A stretch of DNA of 64,000 nucleotides from Candidatus Micrarchaeia archaeon (lineage in GTDB: Archaea; Micrarchaeota; Micrarchaeia; Anstonellales; Bilamarchaeaceae). The DNA lies in the NCBI GenBank assembly GCA_050303335.1, contig JBNLBN010000001.1:42239-106238 (forward strand). Reading direction: 5' to 3'. A model generated the notes under the pieces. That model was not told the origin of the DNA. It ran no database searches and was given only the letters and a program-made list of their open reading frames with translations. Shown here piece after piece: positions 26,866-53,791 of the stretch (positions within the stretch are counted from its first letter, which is position 1; each line of letters begins with the position of its first letter). A program made the position numbers and the translations under genes.

Positions 26866-27506
26866 AAATCGACCTTCATGTCCATACCGAAAGCTCGATC
26901 GACTCGATAATCAAGATCGATGACCTTGCAAAAAAATCAAAGAGCCTCGGGATCATCCCTGCAATAACAGACCACAATAACATCAGGTCCCACGAAAGGT
27001 TCAGGAAGCTTGGCACGCCATTCATTCCCGGAGAGGAAATACGAACAGACCGCGGCGACCTGATAGCCCTGTTCATCAATGAGAATATACCAAAGGGAAC
27101 CGGGTTTGCCGAGAGCCTTGACATGATAAAGGTGCAGGGCGCACTATCCTATCTTCCTCATATGTACGACCTGACGAGGGCCGGAGCGATTCCGGAAAAA
27201 GGAGAAATAAACAAGATCGATATAATTGAGACTTTCAATGCAAGGACGCTTGACAAGAACATGAACCTTAAGGCCATGGACTTTGCGAAAAAACATTCGC
27301 TTCTCCAGGGAGTCGGATCCGACAGCCATTTCCTTTTCGAGTTTGGCTCTACCTATAATATCATGCCTGATTTTGACCTCGGCGACCCTAAAGATTTTTT
27401 AAGGTCAATGGCAAAGTCCAGCTATCAAAAGACAAGTGCGCCATTTTATGTGAGGGGGACCACGACAATGGTAAAATTCATGAGGAGGATCAATGGATCC
27501 GGTTGA
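26862..27506 (+). CDS. PHP-domain phosphoesterase
   Basis: MKIDLHVHTESS is the N-terminal His motif of the PHP fold. There are later His/Asp positions (ITDHNN, GSDSH). Confidence 0.7.
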   Translation: MKIDLHVHTESSIDSIIKIDDLAKKSKSLGIIPAITDHNNIRSHERFRKLGTPFIPGEEIRTDRGDLIALFINENIPKGTGFAESLDMIKVQGALSYLPHMYDLTRAGAIPEKGEINKIDIIETFNARTLDKNMNLKAMDFAKKHSLLQGVGSDSHFLFEFGSTYNIMPDFDLGDPKDFLRSMAKSSYQKTSAPFYVRGTTTMVKFMRRINGSG

Positions 27507-27771
27507 TGCAGGTTTTTGGCATCTTATTGCCGGAACCAGGGGAGGCCCGACACGGCTGGGCATACTTTTGGCTTTGTTAGAAGGACCGCTGAATGCCAAC
27601 CAGATCTGCGAGATCATGTCCATGGATTACAAGACCGTCCGCCATCATCTTGATATTCTTGAAAAGAACCACCTTCTTGAGGTGTCGAAGGAGAAGAAAT
27701 ACGGAGAGCAGTATGCGCTCCGGGAATTCGTCAGGGAGAAACTCTCCAAGATGAATTTGGGGAAACTATAA
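27493..27771 (+). CDS. ArsR-family winged-HTH transcriptional regulator
   Basis: 92 aa with an ICEIMSMDYKTVRHHLDILEKNHLL HTH. Confidence 0.6.
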   Translation: MDPVDAGFWHLIAGTRGGPTRLGILLALLEGPLNANQICEIMSMDYKTVRHHLDILEKNHLLEVSKEKKYGEQYALREFVREKLSKMNLGKL

Positions 27772-27796
27772 TAAATGAAATAAACGAGGTAAAAAT

Positions 27797-28081
27797 ATGG
27801 AAGTAATCGATATCGCGGTCATAATAAACGTGCTCAACGTCCTGCTGCTCTCAGCCCTGCTTTACACCTATGGAAAGAATTATTTCTCGGTCAAGGCGAA
27901 ATTCTGCCTCGGGCTGATATTGTTTGCGGGCCTTTTTATGATTCAGAACCTTATCGCGATCTACTTTGAGCTCTTCCAGTCCCACTGCTATTCGCAAGAC
28001 ACTGCGCAGTTCTCGCTGATACTAAACATCATCCAGACATTCGGCTTCACGTCCCTGCTGTATATAACCTGGAATCCCTAG
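27797..28081 (+). CDS. Small hydrophobic protein with 3 predicted helices (pilin/VirB2-like candidate)
   Basis: 94 aa, almost entirely hydrophobic. It sits immediately upstream of the membrane/ATPase module. Confidence 0.4.
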   Translation: MEVIDIAVIINVLNVLLLSALLYTYGKNYFSVKAKFCLGLILFAGLFMIQNLIAIYFELFQSHCYSQDTAQFSLILNIIQTFGFTSLLYITWNP

Positions 28082-28109
28082 CGAAAGCTATTTAATAGAT
28101 GGATAAGAT

Positions 28110-29165
28110 TTGGCTCCTATGGCAGATTTTCCTGGTGTAGAGATCGCAGTCACTGTTGTTTTCGCCTCGATCCTGCTCGCCGCCATCATGATAGGTCTTG
28201 GCAGGGCACTGCAATACAAGCGGATCGAATCCTTCGGAATCGAGGAACTCATACAGTCAATCATTAACGCAGCGATAATCGGAGCCTTCGCAGCAGTTAC
28301 GGAACTGGTCGCATCGATAAGCTCCACCATCGTCACTCCGATATGCCAGGAAGGGAACGTTATAGAGCAGCTGATCTGCGTGCTTTCCTCTGTAAACGAT
28401 ATGCTCTTCTCGATGTTCAAAGAGCTTGTGCAGATCATGAACCTGGTGGGATACTACCAGTCGATCTCGCTTGATTTCGGCGCCTTCATGATCACGCCGT
28501 TCGAGAATCTTGCCACCCTCTCAGGGGTGCTCTCCACCCAGCTGTTCACGCTCAATGCGCTGATAATTCTTGTTTCCCTCAATATCCAGGTTGGAAGCTT
28601 CATAGGAGAAAACGCCATGGGCCTCCTGTTTCCGGTGGGCCTTGTCCTGAGAACGTTTTTCGCAACAAGGAAGGTCGGCGGATTCCTCATTGCGCTTTCC
28701 CTGGGGCTATTCATCTTCTTCCCGACATTCATCATGATATTCCCGGATCCGCAGCCGAATGCGAACGAGTCTGCACTGCTGATGCAGAATTTCACGAACA
28801 ACAGCTTCTATGCGACCCCGCCAATCATCGACCTGAACGACAACTATGCCATTGCAGGAAAATTCGACATCCTTTCAGGAAGGTGCAAACAGCAGAACAC
28901 AACCAACATAACGAACGTCACATCGAACTGCAATGAGACGCTGGTACTCTACAACATATCCAACCTCTCGGCCAACAACACCTCGGTTGATTTCACGTCC
29001 GACATAACTGAAATAGTGCAGTCAAACAACAACGTGCTTGCGAAAGTCCTCCTTTATTCAGTTCTAGCGCCCGTCTTCTCGCTGCTTATCACAGTTGTTT
29101 TCGTCAAGGAACTCGCGACGATTCTCGGCAGTGAAGTAGGGATAAAAACCATAGCTTCAATTTAA
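28110..29165 (+). CDS. Polytopic membrane protein (VirB6/CedA-like candidate) with an N-glycosylation-rich extracellular segment
   Basis: 351 aa with 5-6 TM helices. NTTNITNVTSNCNETLVLYNISNLSANNTS is a sequon cluster before a final TM. Confidence 0.45.
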   Translation: MAPMADFPGVEIAVTVVFASILLAAIMIGLGRALQYKRIESFGIEELIQSIINAAIIGAFAAVTELVASISSTIVTPICQEGNVIEQLICVLSSVNDMLFSMFKELVQIMNLVGYYQSISLDFGAFMITPFENLATLSGVLSTQLFTLNALIILVSLNIQVGSFIGENAMGLLFPVGLVLRTFFATRKVGGFLIALSLGLFIFFPTFIMIFPDPQPNANESALLMQNFTNNSFYATPPIIDLNDNYAIAGKFDILSGRCKQQNTTNITNVTSNCNETLVLYNISNLSANNTSVDFTSDITEIVQSNNNVLAKVLLYSVLAPVFSLLITVVFVKELATILGSEVGIKTIASI

Positions 29166-29189
29166 AAATTTGGCAGGTGAGAAATTAAC

Positions 29190-29972
29190 ATGATTATAAA
29201 CCGCGCTATAACCATAATTGCTCTTGTAGGCGGAATTCTTGCTATAATCCTGTCTATCCTTTCCGGAAATTTCCTCTTTCCGATACTCGCATCATTGCTT
29301 TTCAGTTTCAGCCTGCTCATATGGAAATACGGCTATCTTTTCATTCCGGTCATCACCAAGGCGACGAACATAGTCGAGGTGCGCGGTTCATATCAGGTGC
29401 CATCTTCCAGGGATCACATACTGATGAAGACTGACAACGGCTATTACGCGTCAAAATTCCTTGAGGTTAAATTCTATGAAAGCTCGATGGAAAAGGACAC
29501 CACGGAAAAAAAGAACATGTTCGAATCCTTCGAGAAGGCAATAAGTTCGCTAAAATACGTTGTAAAAGTAAGCCTGATGATCACGACGCTTGACCTTTCT
29601 CGCCATATTGACGAGATAAAGACAAGGCGGGCAACTGTTGAAGCGAAAAAGTCAAAGGAAGCGAAACTGGCGCAGAACGAGGCACTCAGGATGGACCGTG
29701 AACTTGCGTACCTGAACAGGCTCCTTGACAGGATCACGCAGGGAGAACGGCCTGTCGAAGTAGTCGCATTCGCATCCACTACGGCCTTCGGCCTGACAAG
29801 GGACGAGGCGACCAGCAGGGTGAACCGGCAGGCAAAGGAAATACGGACAATACTTTCCAGTTCGCTCGGATGCGAGGTCCGCGACCTGAAGGACACAGAC
29901 ATGCTCAAATGCTTTGAATGGGACTATTTCTTCCCGACAACAAGAGAAGAAATCAAGGATTCCCTCTTTTAG
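29190..29972 (+). CDS. Membrane protein with an N-terminal 2-TM hairpin plus a cytoplasmic coiled-coil domain (VirB3-like candidate)
   Basis: 260 aa. Two hydrophobic helices in the first 60 aa, then a charged helical domain. Confidence 0.4.
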   Translation: MIINRAITIIALVGGILAIILSILSGNFLFPILASLLFSFSLLIWKYGYLFIPVITKATNIVEVRGSYQVPSSRDHILMKTDNGYYASKFLEVKFYESSMEKDTTEKKNMFESFEKAISSLKYVVKVSLMITTLDLSRHIDEIKTRRATVEAKKSKEAKLAQNEALRMDRELAYLNRLLDRITQGERPVEVVAFASTTAFGLTRDEATSRVNRQAKEIRTILSSSLGCEVRDLKDTDMLKCFEWDYFFPTTREEIKDSLF

Positions 29973-30019
29973 AAAACTTTATATATCCCACTGTTGAGTA
30001 CTTGTTGGGTTGAGGTGGA

Positions 30020-31573
30020 ATGAAGTCTTCATATATGCTCTCTAAGGAGCTTGCGCGCAATATGATTTTTGTGCATCCTCCGGAGCCGAGAAAAGATCTA
30101 TTGCTTTCAGATCCGATGCAGGGAGTCTATATCGGGAAAACAAGGTTTCTCGGCACTCCCGTATTCTGGGATCCGAAGAAGCTCATTAATCCGCACATTG
30201 CGATACTCGGAATTACCGGTTCCGGTAAAAGTTATACTGTAAAGACTTTTCTCACAAGGGCATCTTTAATCTGGAACACCAATGCAGTGATACTTGACTG
30301 GGTCGGAGAATACAGGGAATGGGTAAGGCAGGCAGGGGGGAGGATCATAGATCTTTCTGAAGAAAGGCTTAATATCCTCGACCTGGTCGGACTTCCGAAA
30401 AGGAGCCGGATCAGGCACATAATTTCAGCACTGGACATACTTGTGGACCTGAAGGCATATCCCAACGAGCGTGACGAGATCGAGCAGTCGCTTGAGGAGA
30501 TATATTTCAACCATTCTAGCAAGATGCCTGCAATGGCCGAGATAAACCGGAAGCTCTCGAAGAAGAACATAACCAAGAAAGAGAAACAGGAACTGCTCTC
30601 AAAGCTAAGCAAGCTGGAGAGCTGCAAGCCCACGCTTATCGATGTCGTCAACCTCCTTGAGAAGAAGGGGAAGAGGAAGGCTGCCAGGCTACTGAAGCGA
30701 TTCACCGTGGAAGGCACTGATTTCTTTGCAGGAAATTCTACAATGGACGTCAAGGCGCTTACAAACAGCGGACTTGTCTGCGTTGATCTCCACAATCTCC
30801 CGACAGAGGAGATGAGGAGTCTTGCCGGGCTCACGATCCTCCAGTACATAAAGGAGATAATGCGCCAGGAAAAAATGGAGGAGGACCATAAGAAGGTGAA
30901 GCTCTTCGTCGTCCTAGATGAGGCATGGAAGATCGCGCAGGACGAGAGGTCCGACGTGATCACCATAGTCCGTGAAGGTCGGAAGTACAACTTCTCGCTC
31001 GTGATCGCTACCCAGAACCCGACAGATATGCACAAGACGATCTTCAGCAACATCGGCTCGATCTTCGTGCTGCGCCTTGTTCTTAAGGAATACAGGGATT
31101 ACGTAAAGAATTCCATAGGATATTCCGAATTCATTGACAACGAGATATCCAAGTTCGGTGTGGGGGATGCCGCGGTCAACATGATATTTTCTGAGAGGCA
31201 GTCAAAGGTCATGACATTCCTGATGAATAAGATTGATGGAGAAGAGCCTCTTTTCCTCTACAAGATAAAGGGTGGAGAGATGAATATTGAAATCGAACGT
31301 GAACAGTTTGTTCAGATGCTTTATGAATTGGGACTTAACGAGGGCCAGCTGGGAATGATAAAAGCCCAGTTCGAGAAGGGAGACGGTCTGCTTGAAGGCG
31401 AGGAGCTTGTTGCAATACTGGAAAAGTTCGGATATTCCAGGCCATCGATCATATCATTCCTGCGGCAGCTTGGGATAGACGAGAAGAACCTTATAAAGGT
31501 GTTTTCCCTGGTCAGGATGCGGAAAGCGACCAAGGGGGTCGTTCATCTCGTAATGGAGGATGGAAATGTCTGA
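30020..31573 (+). CDS. HerA/FtsK-superfamily (DUF87, VirB4/CedB-like) ATPase
   Basis: Walker A ILGITGSGKSYTVK about 60 aa from the N-terminus, so there is no HAS-barrel. Walker B VVLDEAWK. ATQNPTD motif. ~100-aa C-terminal helical extension. Confidence 0.65.
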   Translation: MKSSYMLSKELARNMIFVHPPEPRKDLLLSDPMQGVYIGKTRFLGTPVFWDPKKLINPHIAILGITGSGKSYTVKTFLTRASLIWNTNAVILDWVGEYREWVRQAGGRIIDLSEERLNILDLVGLPKRSRIRHIISALDILVDLKAYPNERDEIEQSLEEIYFNHSSKMPAMAEINRKLSKKNITKKEKQELLSKLSKLESCKPTLIDVVNLLEKKGKRKAARLLKRFTVEGTDFFAGNSTMDVKALTNSGLVCVDLHNLPTEEMRSLAGLTILQYIKEIMRQEKMEEDHKKVKLFVVLDEAWKIAQDERSDVITIVREGRKYNFSLVIATQNPTDMHKTIFSNIGSIFVLRLVLKEYRDYVKNSIGYSEFIDNEISKFGVGDAAVNMIFSERQSKVMTFLMNKIDGEEPLFLYKIKGGEMNIEIEREQFVQMLYELGLNEGQLGMIKAQFEKGDGLLEGEELVAILEKFGYSRPSIISFLRQLGIDEKNLIKVFSLVRMRKATKGVVHLVMEDGNV

Positions 31574-32267
31574 AGAAAAGATCGTAGTAAAATGCAAGCA
31601 GAAGAAAAACCTCAAGGCCCTTGCATCGCTTTTCGGGGGGCTGGGATTCACCAAAATCACATACTCAAAGGGAACGCTGGCAATAGAAAAGACGAGGGGC
31701 ACCGATCTTCGGGGGAATCCCTATCTTGAATACAGGGTTGAATTCATCGGCGACGAGATCATCTTCACATTCAGCCTCTCAGGAAAACGCAGCAAGAACG
31801 CGAGGCTTCTTGAACTGATGCCGACATTCCTGAACATCCTGCAGGTCGCGGAGGATTACTACGACATAAACCCAACTCAGATTTTTTCCAACATCAACAC
31901 TGTTCTTCAGGAACTTTCAAAGATCATAGACAAGGACGCGGTCGAGTTTTCCACGCAGCTAACAGACCTGCAGGCGAAATTCGACGATCTCAACAGGAAG
32001 TATTCGGACCTCGTCCGCTCAAGCGAGGCAAATACCAGGATACTGCTGGAGTGCGAAAGGAAGCGGGATGAGCAGCAGAAGAAACTTTCCCAGCTTACCG
32101 GCATGAGCGACGAACTCCTAAAGGAATCTCTGTTCACATGGATCAAGGTCCACAGCGGATCGATAGACATCCGGGAATTCTCCAAGGTCAATTCCATCTC
32201 AGTATCAAGGACGGAAGAGGGCCTGGACCAGCTGATCCGTGAAGGGTACATAAGGAGGAGGGTTTAA
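31560..32267 (+). CDS. Coiled-coil protein with a C-terminal winged-HTH domain, translationally coupled to the ATPase
   Basis: 235 aa. It overlaps the ATPase by 14 nt. The C-terminal ISVSRTEEGLDQLIREGYIRRR is wHTH-like. Confidence 0.4.
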   Translation: MEMSEEKIVVKCKQKKNLKALASLFGGLGFTKITYSKGTLAIEKTRGTDLRGNPYLEYRVEFIGDEIIFTFSLSGKRSKNARLLELMPTFLNILQVAEDYYDINPTQIFSNINTVLQELSKIIDKDAVEFSTQLTDLQAKFDDLNRKYSDLVRSSEANTRILLECERKRDEQQKKLSQLTGMSDELLKESLFTWIKVHSGSIDIREFSKVNSISVSRTEEGLDQLIREGYIRRRV

Positions 32268-39639: not shown

Positions 39640-41993
39640 AAGAACGAATCGAGGCTTTTTTGCATTCCCCCATGCCTCATGCTGTATTCGTCGTAACCCA
39701 GTTCCTTCATGATCTTCATGACAGCAGGAAGTATCTGGTGGCTTATGTAATATTCAGCATCATAGTCCTTTGCAAGTTCGAGAGGCTCGGCCTTTTCCGA
39801 TATGGTCTCTCCCCTCTTCCCGATAACATAGGAGATCAGGGTCCCCTTCTCAGCAGGGATCCCTGCCCTCATCATTTTCCTTGCAGCGCTAAGTTCCGGG
39901 CTTTTTACCTCATAGCTGTCAGGATTCTTGTTGAGCTGGGTGCTGATTGCAAGATTCTCGAGAGCAACTTTCCCGGAATTAAGCTGGTTTATCGTCTCCC
40001 TGATTATCTTGACGGCCTTTTCCTTGCTTCCTTCTATGAGGATCGCCTCAAGCACCCTCTTCTGGGTATCTTTTGCCACATTGGACCAGTCGCGCCTCAC
40101 CAGCTCGAATCCCCGGATCTTTATCCTTCCGTCTTCTCCAAGGAGGGCGTATTTCTTCTTTGCCCCCTTCTCGTCGCCCTTCTTCGAGACGAACACGCCA
40201 CGCTTGAAGAACCCTTCAAGTTCAAGTTCCATCTTCTCAGGAAGATCGTCATTCACCCTGTTCATGAAACTGGTCACTTCCTCCCTATCCTTGTAGATGA
40301 GGAAGACCGAATCGGTATCTGCATAGAGCACCTGGAACCCGGATTCCTCCGCCTTCCTGATGGCATCAGCTATATGCTGCCTTCCCCATGCAGTGACACT
40401 CTCGGCACAGGGCCTGGAATACCACCTGGATCTTGCATATCCAAGATACCCGTAGAACGAATTGGAGAGTATCTTCAATGCCTGGCTCCTTGCGCTGATC
40501 CTCACGTAGTCAAGGGAATCCTTATCCAGTTCCTTCAGCCTGCGCTTCAGCTTTGACCTCATATCCACAAGGTAATCAAGCACTTCTGGGACAAGGCCCA
40601 CCTCCTCCTTGCTGAATTTAGCCCCAGTTGGAGAGATATGTACATCCTCCCCATCCTCTACGAGCGTTCCGGGATCAATATTGTATGAAACTATGATGGA
40701 AGGATACAGCCCCCTGAAATCAAGGACTGCAATGTTGTCGTAAATCCCAGGCTCCGGCAGCTTGACGAATGCACCCTGAATGGGAGCATTTATCCTCTCA
40801 TAGATGGATTCTCCCACCGGTTTCCTCGGTATGATCTTGTTCCTTCTTGATGCATGGAACATCAGCAGGCTCTCGACGAGCTGGCCGCTTGTGGACAGGG
40901 TCGTCTGGAAAAGCGGCATCTTTGATACGGATGAGATCTCCACTTCGAGGGGAAGGAGCCTTTCGGACAATGATTTCGTCAATTCGGCATCCACCAGGGA
41001 ATACTTGAACAGCTTCTCGTCTCCGGCGTCCCACAATTTCCAGATATCATCCTTTGCAACATCAACCTTTTTCTCTCCCAGGACGCTTTCGCAGACTGCA
41101 TCAAGTGTGTACCTCTGGGTCTTGATCACCCCAATGAATCCGAAGAGCCTTGCAATTGGGTACATATCGAAATGCACCCTCCCCTTGACCTGGAAACCCT
41201 TAATCATCCCCTTCTTCATGGGAACGAGCTTTCCTCCGAAGCGTCCGATATCAAGAGGTACATTGAGCATGTCTGCCCTCGCTTTGAGATATGGTAGATC
41301 GAATGTAGAAGAATTATATCCTGTAATGACATCCGGATCCTCCTCTTTTACCACTTCCACGAACCTCCTGATCATCGACTTCTCGTCATTGAGATCCTCA
41401 ACGAAGTCCTGGCCTTTCTTGAAACTAAGGACGCCGCTTTTTTCTCCTGCATAACTAATCATGACGACAGGATCCTTGTTCTCCCTCGGCGCCCCCACCG
41501 GGTTGTAGGTTTCGATATCGAAGGCGAGCGTCTTAAGCTGCGGCGGCTCGCCTGATTCGACCTTTATGATCTTTTTTATGACCTTCCCTTCCCTCTCGTA
41601 TGTGATGACATCGAAAGGGGAAAGCTGCATGTCATATATGAACCTTCTAGCAAACGGGATGCTGTATTCAAAGCACGGGAACGGTATCGCCTGCTTGATT
41701 ATGGGGACATCTGCAGGTATCTTGCAATAAACCTTGATGATCTTCTTCTTAAGAAGCCCCTCCTCCTTGTCAATGATCTCCACGTTGCTCGGGGATGTGT
41801 ATTCGCCGTTTTTCCTCTGGACCTCTATATCGAGAAATTCCTCCGCCCGTTCCACCGGGCCCTCTACAAGGAAATACGGGTCCTGTTGGTAATACAATCT
41901 TGTTGTTACCTTTCCCTTGAGAAGAAGCGATACGTATGTCTTTCCGCCTTTGACGGTATAGCTTGCGTCTATAAAATAGGCCTTCTTCTTCAT
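39636..41993 (-). CDS. polB: Family B DNA polymerase
   Basis: 785 aa. Exonuclease FDIETY, polymerase YADTDSVF, and KILSNSFYGY motif. Confidence 0.85.
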   Translation of the reverse strand: MKKKAYFIDASYTVKGGKTYVSLLLKGKVTTRLYYQQDPYFLVEGPVERAEEFLDIEVQRKNGEYTSPSNVEIIDKEEGLLKKKIIKVYCKIPADVPIIKQAIPFPCFEYSIPFARRFIYDMQLSPFDVITYEREGKVIKKIIKVESGEPPQLKTLAFDIETYNPVGAPRENKDPVVMISYAGEKSGVLSFKKGQDFVEDLNDEKSMIRRFVEVVKEEDPDVITGYNSSTFDLPYLKARADMLNVPLDIGRFGGKLVPMKKGMIKGFQVKGRVHFDMYPIARLFGFIGVIKTQRYTLDAVCESVLGEKKVDVAKDDIWKLWDAGDEKLFKYSLVDAELTKSLSERLLPLEVEISSVSKMPLFQTTLSTSGQLVESLLMFHASRRNKIIPRKPVGESIYERINAPIQGAFVKLPEPGIYDNIAVLDFRGLYPSIIVSYNIDPGTLVEDGEDVHISPTGAKFSKEEVGLVPEVLDYLVDMRSKLKRRLKELDKDSLDYVRISARSQALKILSNSFYGYLGYARSRWYSRPCAESVTAWGRQHIADAIRKAEESGFQVLYADTDSVFLIYKDREEVTSFMNRVNDDLPEKMELELEGFFKRGVFVSKKGDEKGAKKKYALLGEDGRIKIRGFELVRRDWSNVAKDTQKRVLEAILIEGSKEKAVKIIRETINQLNSGKVALENLAISTQLNKNPDSYEVKSPELSAARKMMRAGIPAEKGTLISYVIGKRGETISEKAEPLELAKDYDAEYYISHQILPAVMKIMKELGYDEYSMRHGGMQKSLDSFF

Positions 41994-42053
41994 AAACTTC
42001 TATATCATAAGTAGATTTTTTAAAAAGAAAGAAAAAAGTGATGCCTAAAAAGA

Positions 42054-42785
42054 TTATTTCCTCAAGGATGACTCCTTGCTGACGAGCTCTGAGAGGATGT
42101 CTTCATGGACATACCTCCTTCCGCCGATCTTGACGTGAGGGATCCTTCCACGGTCCAATCTCCTCTCAAATGCGTTCCTCTTGATCCTTATCCCGTTCTT
42201 GTGCAATTCCTTGATTGCCTGGCTGACGGAATAATAGTTGGAACTGATGTGTGTTAAAGCATCAACTGCATCCTTTGGAACAAGTCTCCTTGTTCCGAAC
42301 TTCACTGACGGAATGGATCCTTTCTCGATCCTTCCAATAAATGCCCGGAAGTTGATTTTCGGATTTGACTTCTTGTATGATTCGAATGCTTCCTTTACGG
42401 TATAGAACTCTCCCTTCGTGCTTGTTATGTCGTCAAGTACGGATTTCGGTATATACCTTTTTCTTCCAACTTTAACGAATGGAATGGTTCCGCGCTCAAT
42501 CCTTCCTCCGAAAGCCCTGAATGATATGAATACTCCGTTGCCCTTTAGGTAATCGTATGCAGACCTTACTGAATAGAGGTCATGCTTTCCTTCAAGCTCA
42601 TCTTCTGATGCTTTCTGACGATAAAGATTCTGTGCGACCTTAAATACGCTGCCTATTGATGAAGACAAGCTCTTCTCGGTCTTGTCTCTTTCCTTCTTTA
42701 TTTCCCCAACGTCGATGGACCTAAATCTGTCGACATAGTCATCATCGACTTCTGTTTCTATAATGATTTTCTTTCCACGAGGCAT
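42054..42785 (-). CDS. Protein with three tandem excisionase/MerR-like HTH repeats
   Basis: Three ~60-aa repeats share the pattern FRAFxGRIExGxIPxVKxGxRRxxPKxxxDxx. Examples: ISFRAFGGRIERGTIPFVKVGRKRYIP, FRAFIGRIEKGSIPSVKFGTRRLVP, RNAFERRLDRGRIPHVKIGGRRYVH. Confidence 0.5.
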   Translation of the reverse strand: MPRGKKIIIETEVDDDYVDRFRSIDVGEIKKERDKTEKSLSSSIGSVFKVAQNLYRQKASEDELEGKHDLYSVRSAYDYLKGNGVFISFRAFGGRIERGTIPFVKVGRKRYIPKSVLDDITSTKGEFYTVKEAFESYKKSNPKINFRAFIGRIEKGSIPSVKFGTRRLVPKDAVDALTHISSNYYSVSQAIKELHKNGIRIKRNAFERRLDRGRIPHVKIGGRRYVHEDILSELVSKESSLRK

Positions 42786-42886
42786 GGCATCACCAATTTA
42801 TTATAATTTATACATTTTTATGTTTTATCTGATTATTACTATAAATGACACAGTTTATAAACGTAATGTTTGTGTCGATCTATAAT

Positions 42887-44134
42887 CTAGGCTTTGGATT
42901 TTATGCGAATTACCAAATATATCGCTAAAATCACTACAAAAATACCACCTACAATGTAAAAAAGTGGTAAACCCTGATCTGATCCTGTGTTTTCTTGTGT
43001 ATTTGTCTGGTTTTGGTCATCAGGCACTTCAACGTCCAACGTGGAGAATTTTCCCTCAATCGTTGCACGATTTCCTACCTTGTCCTTAACATCAGCTCTA
43101 AATGAAACGATGCTATTTTGTGGTAACTCAGGAAATTCTGCAGAAAAAGTATTAAAACCTACCGTATAAACGGTTGCAGGTGAAAACGGCGTTGTCGCGT
43201 CAGATGGCTCCACCCTGTAGCTTACCTGCAGGCTTTTTATGTCAACCCCGCTTCCGAATTCACCGGGATCTGTAACAGGTATGGTCAGTTTTGTCCTATT
43301 ATTCACTGTTTCTGGAATAATTTCTCCAAAAGTCGGTGGATGTATATCATAAATCACCAATGCACTTGTATTTTCCTGTGTATCAATCTCTCCCGTTTTT
43401 ATCTCGTTCTTGTAACTTACTTCAAATGGAACAACAAGCCCGTACGTTTTTTCTGTTGTGTAGCTTCCCATCATCTCATGCGTCTCATCAAAAATGGTCA
43501 GTTTTGCCTGCAGCGGTCCTCCAAAGTCATCGATCACATTGACTGTCAGCTGCTCGAAAGGAAAAGTCACTATAAAATTTATATCATCATCGACAACGAT
43601 GACTCCGCTCTGCTTCGCCCTTTCGTAACTGGCAAGATAGTCGTATTCCCCTTCAGGAAGGTATATCCTTGTGAAACCGTTGTTGTTGGTCTTCTGGAAC
43701 CTGTTTGAAATTGTTACTGATGCGTTCGGTATTCCAAGTCCGAACTGGTCCTTGACATAGAAATTCACCGGAAAGACATTCTCAAGCACAACGCTTACTA
43801 TTGATCCGTGCTGGTTTGCCTCGACCTTCTCTGTCTCATTAACTTCGTTCAGCTTGGCGAAGATGGTGATAGTGCAGTCTATATCCCGGATAGTAGTTCC
43901 CTGGTTTATGATCTTGAAGTGCACCATCCCCCGTTCGTCTGTCTGCCTCACTTTGGTTGTAAAGTACTGCTGTCCGAAGGAGGTCCCGGTGTCGTATGTT
44001 ATGGTAACATCGACGTTTTGGATGGGCCTGAGATTCGCATCAAGCACCTGCACATCGAATTCATCAGTCTTTCCCGAACAAAAATCCTCTGCAAAAGCAG
44101 TTGTTATCAAAAGTAGCAACAGCAAGTATTTCAT
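42887..44134 (-). CDS. Secreted surface-anchored protein with prealbumin/carboxypeptidase-regulatory-like beta domains and a C-terminal TM anchor
   Basis: Signal peptide MKYLLLLLLITTAFA. Repeated beta-rich segments. C-terminal LPLFYIVGGIFVVILAIYLVIRIKSKA. Confidence 0.5.
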   Translation of the reverse strand: MKYLLLLLLITTAFAEDFCSGKTDEFDVQVLDANLRPIQNVDVTITYDTGTSFGQQYFTTKVRQTDERGMVHFKIINQGTTIRDIDCTITIFAKLNEVNETEKVEANQHGSIVSVVLENVFPVNFYVKDQFGLGIPNASVTISNRFQKTNNNGFTRIYLPEGEYDYLASYERAKQSGVIVVDDDINFIVTFPFEQLTVNVIDDFGGPLQAKLTIFDETHEMMGSYTTEKTYGLVVPFEVSYKNEIKTGEIDTQENTSALVIYDIHPPTFGEIIPETVNNRTKLTIPVTDPGEFGSGVDIKSLQVSYRVEPSDATTPFSPATVYTVGFNTFSAEFPELPQNSIVSFRADVKDKVGNRATIEGKFSTLDVEVPDDQNQTNTQENTGSDQGLPLFYIVGGIFVVILAIYLVIRIKSKA

Positions 44135-44159
44135 AACCCTTCTTTATTATCTAAAATTT

Positions 44160-45311
44160 TTAATACTCTCCCAATGTCTTCTGCCTTGAACTGAGCATCT
44201 CCCGTATGAGGACGCCCTGGTCAATGAACCTTGATATCGGCAGCTTCATCTTTGTCGATACATAATTCATCGCGGACCTGAAGCTTTCGAATTCCCTTGG
44301 CTTTTCATTCATCGCATTCCGGACATTCTCCCTCACATTGAACACTCCAAGAGGTATATATCCTTCGCGTGCTTCGCGCAGTATTATCGCTCCGGCCTGC
44401 TTTTTCATCCTCATCAGGCCTTCGAGCACCCCGAACTTGGCGCTGTAATAGCATCCTCCGACCACAGAGTAGCTTTTCTTTGGCTTCCACTGCTCGTAAT
44501 CTGCAAAAATCATTTCCTCGTTTCCAAGGATCCTGATAAAAGCCTCTATCCATTCGTACTGCCACGGAGTCGGAAGAAGGATTATTGCATAATAGTTGTT
44601 GAGGCTCGAGAATTCGAATACCTGGAAATTGTGGAGGATATCGAAATACTTCACATTATCATAAAGGTACGATGCAAGCATGCTGTCTACTGCGGTAATA
44701 GACCATCTTGTAGGGACAAGCTTCCGCTCAATTCCCATAGATCCTGTAGAAAGCGCCTTCTGAAGGTTCGAGACAAGCACCCTGTCATTGTAAAGCCCGA
44801 CAACTGCATCCCTTGCAAGGAGGTCGGTATCATAATACGCCTTCTCAAGTCCCCGGTCCCACTTTACATTTTCGATCTCGAATTTGTCAAGCCTGGCGCT
44901 TGGCCCATGCGGCTGGTGCTCGTTGTCGAACATGAAGCCCCTTGGTTTGTGGTGGAATTCAGCCTCGCTCTGTACCGATTCGCGAGCAAGCGATATTTCC
45001 TGGAGCTTTGTAACCAGTTTGTCATCCAGGTCCCTGATTCCCACGATCTTTTTTCCTCTAACAAGATCCATCCTGAAGCTGATGATGTCCTCCTGTCCCT
45101 TATTCTGAGGTATCCATGCCTCAGGCCGGTCAAGGATGGTGCTCTCGTCATATTGGGTCATCATGGGCCCTACGGCAACCTTTGGATAGCCGAAGCTTCC
45201 TATAAATACCGATGGCGGGCTGCTTCCATCCATCTTTTCTGAGACATCTGCAGTCTTCCATCTGATGTTGCTGGTAATTTTTTTGAGATAGGCGCCTTTT
45301 CCCAAACCCAT
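44160..45311 (-). CDS. Conserved archaeal hypothetical protein, possibly Nre-family (PCNA-associated DNA-repair factor)
   Basis: 383 aa. The extreme C-terminus QKTLGEY is a degenerate PIP-box-like QxxLxxY. The family call is from memory only. Confidence 0.3.
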   Translation of the reverse strand: MGLGKGAYLKKITSNIRWKTADVSEKMDGSSPPSVFIGSFGYPKVAVGPMMTQYDESTILDRPEAWIPQNKGQEDIISFRMDLVRGKKIVGIRDLDDKLVTKLQEISLARESVQSEAEFHHKPRGFMFDNEHQPHGPSARLDKFEIENVKWDRGLEKAYYDTDLLARDAVVGLYNDRVLVSNLQKALSTGSMGIERKLVPTRWSITAVDSMLASYLYDNVKYFDILHNFQVFEFSSLNNYYAIILLPTPWQYEWIEAFIRILGNEEMIFADYEQWKPKKSYSVVGGCYYSAKFGVLEGLMRMKKQAGAIILREAREGYIPLGVFNVRENVRNAMNEKPREFESFRSAMNYVSTKMKLPISRFIDQGVLIREMLSSRQKTLGEY

Positions 45312-47289: not shown

Positions 47290-47361
47290 ATGCGACCGTA
47301 GTCTACCGGTTATGATTCGAGATTGCCAATCTCGCGGACCGGGTTCGATTCCCGGCGGTCG
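47290..47361 (+). tRNA. tRNA-Gly (anticodon GCC)
   Basis: Hand-folded. Acceptor GCGACCG/CGGTCGC. Anticodon stem CGAGA/TCTCG with loop TTGCCAA, giving GCC at 47323-47325. T-arm CCGGG-TTCGATT-CCCGG. Discriminator A. No encoded CCA. Confidence 0.8.
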
Positions 47362-47374
47362 CATAGTTGGTTTT

Positions 47375-52867: not shown

Positions 52868-53791
52868 ATGGACAAGCTGGTGCACCTTGCAAAAAAAATA
52901 AGGATCAACAATGATTACCTTATGGAGCAGGCAAGGTCGATGCGAGATCTTGCAGTCCCCGTTTCAGGAGTTCCGCTTGATCTCTCAGTCTGCGCCGTAG
53001 ACGGAGGATTGCTTACACACAGGATGCACGGAATTGATATCGCTGTGAGCAGGTCCGTCGGGGTCAACCTTGTATATAGGGATTCATCGATAGTTGAACA
53101 TAACTATCATCCGACAAAGAATCCCCGCCCTGATATCGATGTAAAAAGCGCCCTGGATGACCATGAAGCCAACACCTTCAAGTCTCTCGTGCGCCTGAAA
53201 TCAGAAATCACATGCGCAATCGAGACGCTTGAAAAATTCAATCCGGACCTTTTATTGCTGGACGGTTCGCTTCTTCCGGTACCAGGAGATGTCCCGTCAA
53301 GGGAAAGCGAGCTCCATCCTCTTTATACCGACATTCTCGGCCTCTATGAGAGGCTTTTCTCATCAGGAAAAAACATTGCGGGCGTGATCAAGGATACACG
53401 TGCAAAAAGGCTTTCATCCCTCAAGTGCTCCGATTCAGTCCTTTCATCCTACCTCCTCAATGTCAATGAAAGGACGAAGGAAATCGACTATTTCGGGGAG
53501 ATCGCAAACAAGGAACTCTCAAGCCTTGGAAAGAAGATAAAGGTAACCTACATGAAACCCTCGCAGGAGGACCTGCCGCTTCGAGTCGAAATTTTTGGTG
53601 ATGTTGAAAAAATATCATCACAGGTCTATACATTATCGGCGATAAGCAGTCATTTCGCCTATCCCGCGATCCTTGTCGAAGCAGACATGTGCGCGGCGCT
53701 CGATCCAATAGAGATGGAATCAGTAGAACTCTCGCTTTCAAGGCTTGCAGGGATCAAGCCGCTAAGAAGGAATTTCAGGCCATTCAGATAG
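52868..53791 (+). CDS. NurA-like 5'-3' nuclease-domain protein (orphan, not adjacent to HerA)
   Basis: 307 aa. VCAVDGGLL matches the NurA catalytic AVDGS-type motif and fits the RNase-H-like fold. Confidence 0.4.
   Translation: MDKLVHLAKKIRINNDYLMEQARSMRDLAVPVSGVPLDLSVCAVDGGLLTHRMHGIDIAVSRSVGVNLVYRDSSIVEHNYHPTKNPRPDIDVKSALDDHEANTFKSLVRLKSEITCAIETLEKFNPDLLLLDGSLLPVPGDVPSRESELHPLYTDILGLYERLFSSGKNIAGVIKDTRAKRLSSLKCSDSVLSSYLLNVNERTKEIDYFGEIANKELSSLGKKIKVTYMKPSQEDLPLRVEIFGDVEKISSQVYTLSAISSHFAYPAILVEADMCAALDPIEMESVELSLSRLAGIKPLRRNFRPFR

Follow-up and report, generated by a model that had tools for sequence, protein, structure and literature searches.

A conserved four-gene operon of Micrarchaeota with a split CedB/VirB4-like ATPase, probably a relative of the Ced and Ted translocation machines

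The window studied here is the whole stretch of DNA that was analysed, 64,000 nucleotides (nt) of contig JBNLBN010000001.1 (GCA_050303335.1, positions 42,239-106,238) of a Candidatus Micrarchaeia archaeon, and our view of this genome is that of these 64 kilobases (kb). It contains a cluster of five open reading frames (ORFs) on the plus strand around an ATPase gene (Table 1), which the first-pass annotation had put forward as a minimal DNA-translocation module resembling a type IV secretion system (T4SS). An ORF check of this strand reproduced the five reading frames, their motifs and the overlap of 14 nt between the ATPase gene and the last gene; the preceding gaps between the ORFs are 28, 24 and 47 nt long. 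Four of the ORFs form a conserved operon, coding for a polytopic membrane protein, a 260 amino acid (aa) protein with a transmembrane (TM) hairpin, a 517 aa ATPase and a 235 aa protein with a winged helix-turn-helix (wHTH). The module as proposed therefore stands for these four genes, while the inclusion of the 94 aa gene in front of them does not.

Table 1. Features of the 64-kb window discussed in the text (positions in the window)
Feature	Position	Strand	Remark
STT3/AglB oligosaccharyltransferase homologue, 987 aa	7100-10063
ORF of 742 aa	20810-23038	-	no Pfam match at E <= 1e-5
ArsR-type wHTH gene (92 aa) and 94 aa three-helix membrane protein gene	27493-28081		Pfam HTH_5, 1e-11, for ArsR
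94 aa ORF	27797-28081	+	not part of the conserved operon
TATA-box-like sequence TATTTAATA	28089-28097	+	26 nt before the ATG at 28119, read from sequence
Polytopic membrane protein, probably a glycoprotein, 348 aa (ATG 28119) or 351 aa (TTG 28110)	28119-29165	+	candidate VirB6/CedA-like channel subunit
260 aa protein, TM hairpin and cytoplasmic domain	29190-29972	+	putative detached N-terminal anchor and N-terminal domain of a CedB/VirB4-type ATPase
517 aa ATPase of the FtsK-HerA superfamily (DUF87)	30020-31573	+	CedB/VirB4-like, without HAS-barrel
C-terminal domain of the ATPase (residues 390-517)	31187-31570	+	conserved, about 130 aa
235 aa coiled-coil/wHTH partner	31560-32267	+	translationally coupled to the ATPase
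Region of lower GC content	41000-44200		GC 0.42-0.44, about 0.48 elsewhere
HTH_17 (excisionase-type HTH) protein	42054-42785
Ig-like/CarboxypepD_reg protein	42887-44134
ORF of 622 aa	45337-47205	-	no Pfam match at E <= 1e-5
tRNA-Gly	47291-47364		only tRNA of the window, 15 kb from the module
NurA-domain gene	52868-53791		Pfam 2.9e-18; 21 kb from the ATPase

The ATPase carries a Walker A motif (GITGSGKS, residues 64-71), a Walker B motif (VVLDEAWK, residues 297-304) and an ATQNPTD motif (residues 330-336), and it matches the Pfam families DUF87 (2.5e-19) and AAA_10 (1.2e-16). The best-scoring NCBIfam model is CedB (NF041017; E 5.4e-26, 91.4 bits, cut-off 700), followed by the CD1110 VirB4-like family (E 3.8e-25, 88 bits, cut-off 325), the VirB4 of mycoplasma integrative conjugative elements (E 5.3e-21), CedD (E 2e-18) and HerA (E 2.4e-16). 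VirB4_CagE (TIGR00929) gives 47 bits, with a cut-off of 643. Judged by these scores, the likeness of the ATPase to the VirB4 family models is at the superfamily level only. Searches of PDB sequences ranked HerA-type defence helicases slightly above VirB4 (PDB: 4ag5), which aligns in one long stretch over profile positions 35-301. The ATPase core alone cannot separate HerA from VirB4, which agrees with the fact that CedB and CedD were themselves formerly classed in the HerA clade (PMC11868833).

There is no room for a HAS-barrel in the ATPase, as position 139 of the HerA model already aligns to residue 56, with only about 55 residues before it. The first-pass annotation had taken this absence as its argument for the VirB4/CedB branch. 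The absence itself was borne out, but it does not settle the question as the sole decider; the assignment to CedB/VirB4 follows from the missing HAS-barrel together with a CedB/VirB4-like N-terminal domain (NTD) encoded by the neighbouring gene and the membrane protein and pilin context, and it is the NTD gene and the gene context that decide. At the other end of the protein, the match to the CedB model stops near residue 389. The remaining residues 390-517 form a strongly conserved C-terminal domain, which looks helical from its sequence, contains two similar LG-x-(N/D)E motifs and has no PDB sequence match. Since the CedB match ends before it, this domain is without counterpart in the CedB model.

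Sequence comparison identifies the 260 aa protein as the detached, membrane-anchored NTD of a CedB/VirB4-type ATPase. It starts with a hydrophobic hairpin, of which the first helix alone exceeds the hydropathy threshold, and it aligns to positions 8-174 of the NCBIfam CedB model with an E-value of 0.0015. Among 24 orthologues, seven matched CedB (best E 9.5e-5), five the CD1110 VirB4-like family and three VirB4_plasma, so that CedB and CD1110 are the two most frequently matched families, and an ATPase domain is absent from all 24. A PDB sequence-profile search with this protein gave nothing useful. The hairpin agrees with the earlier description of the protein as VirB3-like in topology, which can now be refined to a homologue of the anchor and NTD of CedB/VirB4-type ATPases. 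In Sulfolobales the VirB4-like NTD is reported to be spread over CedB and CedD (PMC11868833), which is a precedent for a divided NTD in Micrarchaeota, although the split is of another kind.

Relatives in which both parts are found on one protein support this assignment. With the ATPase profile as query, 153 relatives below 1e-30 were detected among 1.84 billion representative proteins, including fused proteins of 813-913 aa in which two N-terminal TM helices are combined with an NTD of about 250 aa, with the ATPase and with a wHTH at the C-terminus (P0156, P0158, P0170, P0175, P0219 and P0271). Read by eye, their C-terminal end resembles a PD-(D/E)xK-type nuclease domain. The three fused relatives that were scanned cover positions 72-587 of the 590 positions of the CedB model (1e-34 to 1e-42, 119-144 bits). 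When the profile of the 260 aa family was aligned with a profile of seven fused N-termini (from proteins of 689-913 aa), hhalign gave a probability of 93.9%, an E-value of 1.5e-7 and 231 colinear columns; against single fused proteins the alignments are weak (E 0.096 and 0.056), and significance is reached only with the profile of the seven N-termini.

Relatives of the ATPase occur in 363 species genomes of a scan with one genome per species, and the module loci were counted by tblastn with the window proteins in the best 80 of these 363 genomes. In these best 80 loci the ATPase identity is 57-87% and the genomes are labelled Micrarchaeota, Micrarchaeia, Anstonellales, Bilamarchaeaceae, 'ainarchaeum' or plain 'archaeon'. 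ATPase homologues among the matches listed (n=120) have identities of 67-100%, and all of those with source names come from Micrarchaeota or related taxa (Bilamarchaeaceae, 'ainarchaeum'). Within the DPANN kingdom Nanobdellati, Bilamarchaeum is placed in the class Micrarchaeia.

Matches to the 235 aa protein were found in 79 of the 80 loci, to the 260 aa protein in 71 and to the membrane protein in 58, next to 69 for the downstream neighbour PurD; many of the module genes counted as absent belong to loci that are cut by contig ends. Order and strand of the three genes are kept across the matching loci, with the exception of L032, where the membrane protein gene is inverted and lies further upstream. 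In more distant lineages the operon genes lie end to end or share a few bases. The survey thus confirmed that the synteny is conserved in relatives. Moreover, PurD is less conserved than the ATPase in all 65 of 65 loci, with a median difference of 10.6 percentage points. Several ATPase homologues (L052, 4846-7890; P0129; P0130) contain inteins with LAGLIDADG homing endonucleases (Pfam: Intein_splicing, LAGLIDADG_3), which in P0130 sit in the P-loop after GSGK and in P0129 in Walker B.

The surroundings of the operon are conserved as well, with a PHP gene upstream and PurD downstream across the best 80 loci, and every neighbour scanned is a housekeeping gene, as the first-pass annotation had noted. 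The GC content is flat across the module region (0.47-0.50). None of the about 45 window ORFs scanned with Pfam, which are a part of all ORFs of the window, is a relaxase, a type IV coupling protein or an integrase, in line with what had been stated before. A tblastn search of 72,556 plasmids returned no close ATPase homologue and only weak partial matches, the best of them to the CD1110 VirB4-like family with 28-31% identity over about 150 residues. A mobile-element origin of the module was rejected on the flat GC content, the lack of a nearby tRNA and the conserved housekeeping neighbours, and we conclude that the module is chromosomal and vertically inherited.

Within the operon, the boundary between the 260 aa and ATPase genes looks like a hot spot for insertions. 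In nine loci (L008, L010, L011, L018, L019, L020, L027, L042 and L055) 2.5-7.6 kb of unrelated genes separate the two. These inserts code for right-handed beta-helix/NosD-like proteins of 1200-1259 aa (L018, L020), for proteins of 795-946 aa without family match and for an AAA_5 ATPase. Insertions of about 1 kb occur as well, for example an alpha/beta hydrolase gene in L024.

In other lineages the operon opens with a pilin gene. It was found in 13 more distant loci of Micrarchaeota, where it codes for an 81 aa protein and immediately precedes the membrane protein gene. The product consists of two hydrophobic helices, joined by a loop with a conserved Q-x-Q-P-x-x-x-R-G-K motif. One member of the family reaches the gathering score of Pfam TrbC (28.0 against 27.9 bits, E 2.6e-6), and T4SS_pilin is the most-matched family, with matches in eight of ten members (best E 4.4e-5, below the cut-off). 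A PDB sequence-profile search with this family gave nothing useful. When a database of 23 sequences was searched with the hidden Markov model (HMM) of the membrane protein, two of the pilins also obtained low scores (E 2.9e-4 and 3.4e-3), which resembles the published relation of CedA and CedA1, and an hhalign comparison of the pilin family with the N-terminus of the membrane protein gave an E-value of 0.024 and a probability of 2%; neither result is counted as evidence here. A profile search of the six-frame translation of the 64-kb window found no member of the 81 aa pilin family.

The only free-standing small hydrophobic ORF of the 64-kb window is the 94 aa ORF, whose product is hydrophobic over nearly its whole length (grand average of hydropathy 0.99) and had been proposed as a pilin/VirB2-like protein. 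This proposal did not survive the comparison with other loci. The gene has matches in two of the 80 loci, it travels with an ArsR-type gene (itself matched in one of the 80) and its product does not match the TrbC/VirB2-like pilin family that is encoded at this position elsewhere; a diverged pilin was rejected on the same grounds. The ArsR gene and the PHP gene upstream of it share 14 nt. In L012 the pair of ArsR and 94 aa genes is located 2.6 kb upstream of the operon, before a thioredoxin/CcdA-like cassette, and in L062 a sequence similar to the 94 aa protein forms the C-terminus of a 154 aa protein on the opposite strand. The pair looks like an independent two-gene unit that was inserted 5' of the operon, and this cassette sits where the pilin gene stands in the operons of other lineages. 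In L001, L010, L018, L022 and L027 the same slot is occupied by a membrane protein of 182-209 aa with three to five predicted TM segments, and the only copy scanned (L010) has a Yip1 domain (Pfam: Yip1, 8.8e-8). The content of this upstream position varies between loci.

The TATA-box-like sequence TATTTAATA is a putative promoter of the conserved operon, located 3' of the 94 aa gene, and its spacing would give a leaderless or near-leaderless transcript. A separate promoter at this position fits the view that the ArsR and 94 aa genes are a separate unit. The ATG at 28119 is the more likely start of the membrane protein gene rather than the TTG at 28110; the resulting 348 aa are also the length of the deposited protein P0272.

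The membrane protein is polytopic by hydropathy. Hydropathy, the positive-inside rule, conserved cysteine pairs and sequons point to a protein that crosses the membrane about five times, with the N-terminus outside, the C-terminus inside and two outside loops, and it is in these loops that the cysteine pairs and sequons would lie. The same N-out, C-in topology with about five TM segments is described for Agrobacterium VirB6. All 11 N-x-S/T sequons of the 351 aa form are located at residues 216-289; shuffled sequences contain 4.0 sequons on average (standard deviation 1.8) and reached 11 in one of 2000 cases. As an STT3/AglB homologue is encoded in the window, N-glycosylation of the sequon-rich loop is plausible, and the membrane protein is probably N-glycosylated. 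The AlphaFold model is an all-helical bundle of long helices in which this loop is poorly defined (predicted local distance difference test score (pLDDT) 79.4, predicted template modelling score 0.73). Foldseek found nothing for this model in the PDB (best match TTYH, E 0.047, template modelling score 0.19), and the protein has no match in Pfam or in PDB-sequence profile searches. Of the earlier claim of a VirB6/CedA-like protein with a sequon-rich extracellular loop, the topology and position were retained, and homology was not found by Foldseek or profiles; the protein is VirB6-like by position and topology only.

For the last gene, a coiled coil with a C-terminal wHTH had been predicted, and the AlphaFold model (pLDDT 85.8) contains both a helix of 75 residues and a C-terminal three-helix wHTH-like bundle, besides an N-terminal alpha/beta domain. 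The protein matches no family in Pfam or NCBIfam. Foldseek gave no significant match for the model (best E 0.13), the N-terminal domain being weakly TBP-, ZipA- and SRPBCC-like.

Related operons are also found at a larger distance. L081 (GCA_900175155.1) has the same five-gene layout with an 82 aa pilin and adjoins PcrB and other housekeeping genes. In L085 all five components are recognisable (pilin 2.6e-17, membrane protein 5e-32, NTD protein 2e-16, ATPase 2e-61, last protein 9.4e-6), and the pilin has an apparent N-terminal signal sequence, as read by eye. L084, a JGI metagenome contig, shows the order of L085 (pilin 1e-16, membrane protein 2.4e-30, NTD protein 5.8e-23, ATPase 6.7e-57), but its last protein matches only weakly (0.006). 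The cluster mates of the L085 ATPase (P0159) include proteins named Marsarchaeota, and we call L084 and L085 Marsarchaeota-type on the basis of these cluster names. In Nitrosopumilaceae, L083 has the layout of these loci and encodes, in this order, a small protein with a weak precomputed match to Pfam CedA1, a 281 aa protein, a 264 aa NTD-like protein (3e-5) and the ATPase, and is surrounded by unknown and TIR-domain genes. The fused form in L082 (7001-9586 and neighbours) adjoins a phage-type integrase and a MazE antitoxin gene and is probably located on an integrated element. Set beside the loci flanked by housekeeping genes, L082 indicates that mobile and domesticated versions of the machine both exist, the Micrarchaeota operon being a domesticated one.

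Three observations elsewhere in the window concern none of these genes. The GC content drops between 41000 and 44200, where the HTH_17 and the Ig-like/CarboxypepD_reg protein are encoded, and this region may be a small acquired island. Furthermore, there are two large minus-strand ORFs without Pfam match (Table 1).

The closest known system is the Ced system of Sulfolobales, composed of CedA, CedA1, CedA2, CedB and CedD/CedE. Like the module, it is chromosomal and without relaxase, and it combines a polytopic membrane protein with a membrane-anchored FtsK-HerA-type ATPase that lacks a HAS-barrel and possesses a VirB4-like NTD. A small two-helix pilin is shared with the loci related to the module, and CedB is the best NCBIfam model for the module ATPase as well as for the NTD protein. 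There are also clear differences. The anchor and VirB4-like NTD that precede the ATPase in CedB are present in the module, but they are encoded by a gene of their own upstream: each of CedB and CedD is a complete ATPase, whereas the anchor and NTD gene of the module has no ATPase domain, and the module ATPase has the additional C-terminal domain. The pilin of the module-related operons matches TrbC/T4SS_pilin, and the window is without a CedA1-type pilin. We know of no Ced counterpart of the coiled-coil/wHTH partner. Finally, the host phylum is Micrarchaeota, as opposed to the Thermoproteota of Ced.

The Ted system of Thermoproteales (TedA, TedB and TedC), which we compared by description only, is likewise a domesticated chromosomal T4SS derivative with VirB2-, VirB6- and VirB4-like parts (PMC9905601). 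A cleaved signal is reported for TedC, comparable to the apparent signal sequence of the L085 pilin. TedB is a single VirB4-like protein, whereas the motor of the module is split, and HerA, ParA and Rad50 genes, reported at Ted loci, are absent from the module. Minimal T4SS of monoderm bacteria (MPF-FATA) have comparable parts in their VirB3-like anchor, VirB4, VirB6-like protein and VirB2-like pilin, and their VirB4-like CD1110 family is the second-best model for the module ATPase. The T4SS of Patescibacteria is, like the module, chromosomal, relaxase-less and found in ultra-small organisms (PMC12102498). In contrast to the bacterial systems the module is archaeal and has a wHTH partner of its own, no VirB8/PrgL, TrsD/VirB11, coupling protein or hydrolase homologue was seen in it, and the similarity is at superfamily level only.

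We propose that the module is probably a chromosomal translocation machine derived from a conjugative T4SS, of the same kind as the Ced and Ted DNA importers and with a split motor. Sequence data carry this proposal: the motor parts show homology, the four genes are conserved and inherited together, and the pilin is encoded in orthologous operons. In such a machine the 348 aa protein would form a VirB6/CedA-like membrane channel, onto which the 260 aa protein would dock the ATPase ring, a hexamer being assumed by analogy with the superfamily. ATP hydrolysis would then drive a polymer, most likely DNA, through the channel, and the wHTH protein might handle nucleic acid or regulate the motor on the cytoplasmic side. 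Both the DNA cargo and the direction, import from a contacted cell, are suggested by analogy with Ced and Ted. Literature searches found no paper that describes a Ced- or T4SS-like system in Micrarchaeota; the sole existing trace is the name "CedB", assigned automatically in one genome and not discussed in the Bilamarchaeum genome paper. On this proposal the Micrarchaeota module would be a new, split-ATPase variant of Ced/Ted-type systems.

Several points weigh against this proposal. The ATPase stays under the cut-off of every curated family (for CedB, 91 against 700 bits; for VirB4_CagE, 47 against 643), and PDB searches place its core as near to HerA-type defence helicases as to VirB4. Foldseek and profile searches returned no match that would establish the membrane protein as a VirB6 or CedA homologue, and the 235 aa partner has no recognisable relatives outside the module system. 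As the 64-kb window holds no pilin gene, the window lineage may be without a pilus. Moreover, gene-exchange machinery is not usually conserved so strongly and does not usually carry inteins, which might indicate a housekeeping role.

A T4SS-derived machine need not import DNA. It could instead form a surface filament or contact conduit for adhesion, proteins or host material, comparable to the relaxase-less T4SS of Patescibacteria, which is chromosomal and mostly without a relaxase, and components of which were found essential for epibiotic growth (PMC12102498). The pilin gene of orthologous operons, the lack of a relaxase or coupling protein among the ORFs scanned, the DPANN nature of the host organism and the giant beta-helix surface protein genes inserted inside the operon in some relatives are all compatible with such a function. 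We regard it as unlikely, since Ced and Ted, the nearest of the characterised systems, are DNA importers (PMC9905601), the motor is coupled to a wHTH protein and the pilin gene is missing at the locus of the window lineage. Moreover, the operon is not restricted to DPANN, as the Marsarchaeota-type loci (so called by cluster names) are outside of this group.

The housekeeping role could be that of an FtsK/SpoIIIE-like membrane-anchored DNA pump, which clears or segregates the chromosome at division with the wHTH as its DNA-recognition module. The ATPase is a member of the FtsK-HerA superfamily and weakly matches Pfam FtsK_SpoIIIE over the P-loop, its conservation exceeds that of PurD in every locus compared, and its homologues carry inteins in the P-loop and Walker B. 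The operon is very widespread in small genomes, its wHTH protein is coupled to the motor and the locus of the window lineage lacks a pilin gene, all of which would suit a DNA pump. However, the FtsK match is limited to residues 44-79 (25.7 bits), and an FtsK motor of full length with a gamma-type domain was not found. A TrbC/VirB2-like pilin, in some cases with a signal peptide, opens orthologous operons, the detached NTD is CedB/VirB4-like, and a septal DNA pump does not need the large, probably glycosylated extracellular loops of the membrane partner. We therefore consider a division-associated pump quite improbable.

The NurA-like gene had raised the option of a HerA-type DNA-repair helicase partnered with this nuclease. 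The NurA identity is genuine, and the HerA-NurA end-resection complex shares its ATPase superfamily with the module: DUF87 is the "HerA central domain" family, the top PDB sequence matches of the ATPase are HerA-like proteins, and no HerA is adjacent to the NurA gene. The link to the operon did not hold. The NurA gene lies 21 kb away from the ATPase gene among unrelated genes (dCTP deaminase, a coiled-coil protein and SRP54) with no HerA, Mre11 or Rad50 alongside, on which ground we rejected the partnership. Furthermore, the ATPase lacks a HAS-barrel, its gene is invariably linked to those of two membrane proteins and coupled in translation to that of the wHTH protein, and the CedB and VirB4-like models match it better than HerA models do, so a repair helicase is very unlikely here. 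Least credible of all is the transfer apparatus of a conjugative element or plasmid integrated in the chromosome, as the integrase and antitoxin gene beside the fused relative in L082 and the unknown and TIR-domain genes around L083 are set against constant PHP and PurD neighbours in the best 80 loci, flat GC content, no nearby tRNA, no integrase among the ORFs scanned and no close homologue on the 72,556 plasmids.

Returning to a translocation machine of the Ced/Ted kind, we tentatively suggest, with considerable reserve, a more specific role. The operon may be a widely conserved, near-essential conduit of Micrarchaeota, corresponding in archaea to the relaxase-less T4SS on which Patescibacteria depend for epibiotic growth. 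Through it these archaea with reduced genomes may take up DNA or other host macromolecules from the cells to which they attach, with the split ATPase and the wHTH partner as lineage-specific adaptations and without an operon-encoded pilus in the window lineage.

To our knowledge, Ced and Ted are the only described chromosomal DNA-import machines of archaea derived from conjugation, and both are from Thermoproteota. The operon would extend a machine of this kind to DPANN archaea in a distinct form, with a split motor and a coiled-coil/wHTH partner. The split ATPase also presents the VirB4 NTD and its motor as two naturally separated parts. Homologues in 363 species genomes, an ATPase more conserved than the purine-biosynthesis enzyme PurD and inteins in its catalytic motifs suggest a central role in the biology of these organisms. 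For the question of how DPANN archaea acquire host material, the operon gives a defined target of four genes. A few Micrarchaeota co-cultures exist, so that localisation, expression and transfer experiments are feasible.

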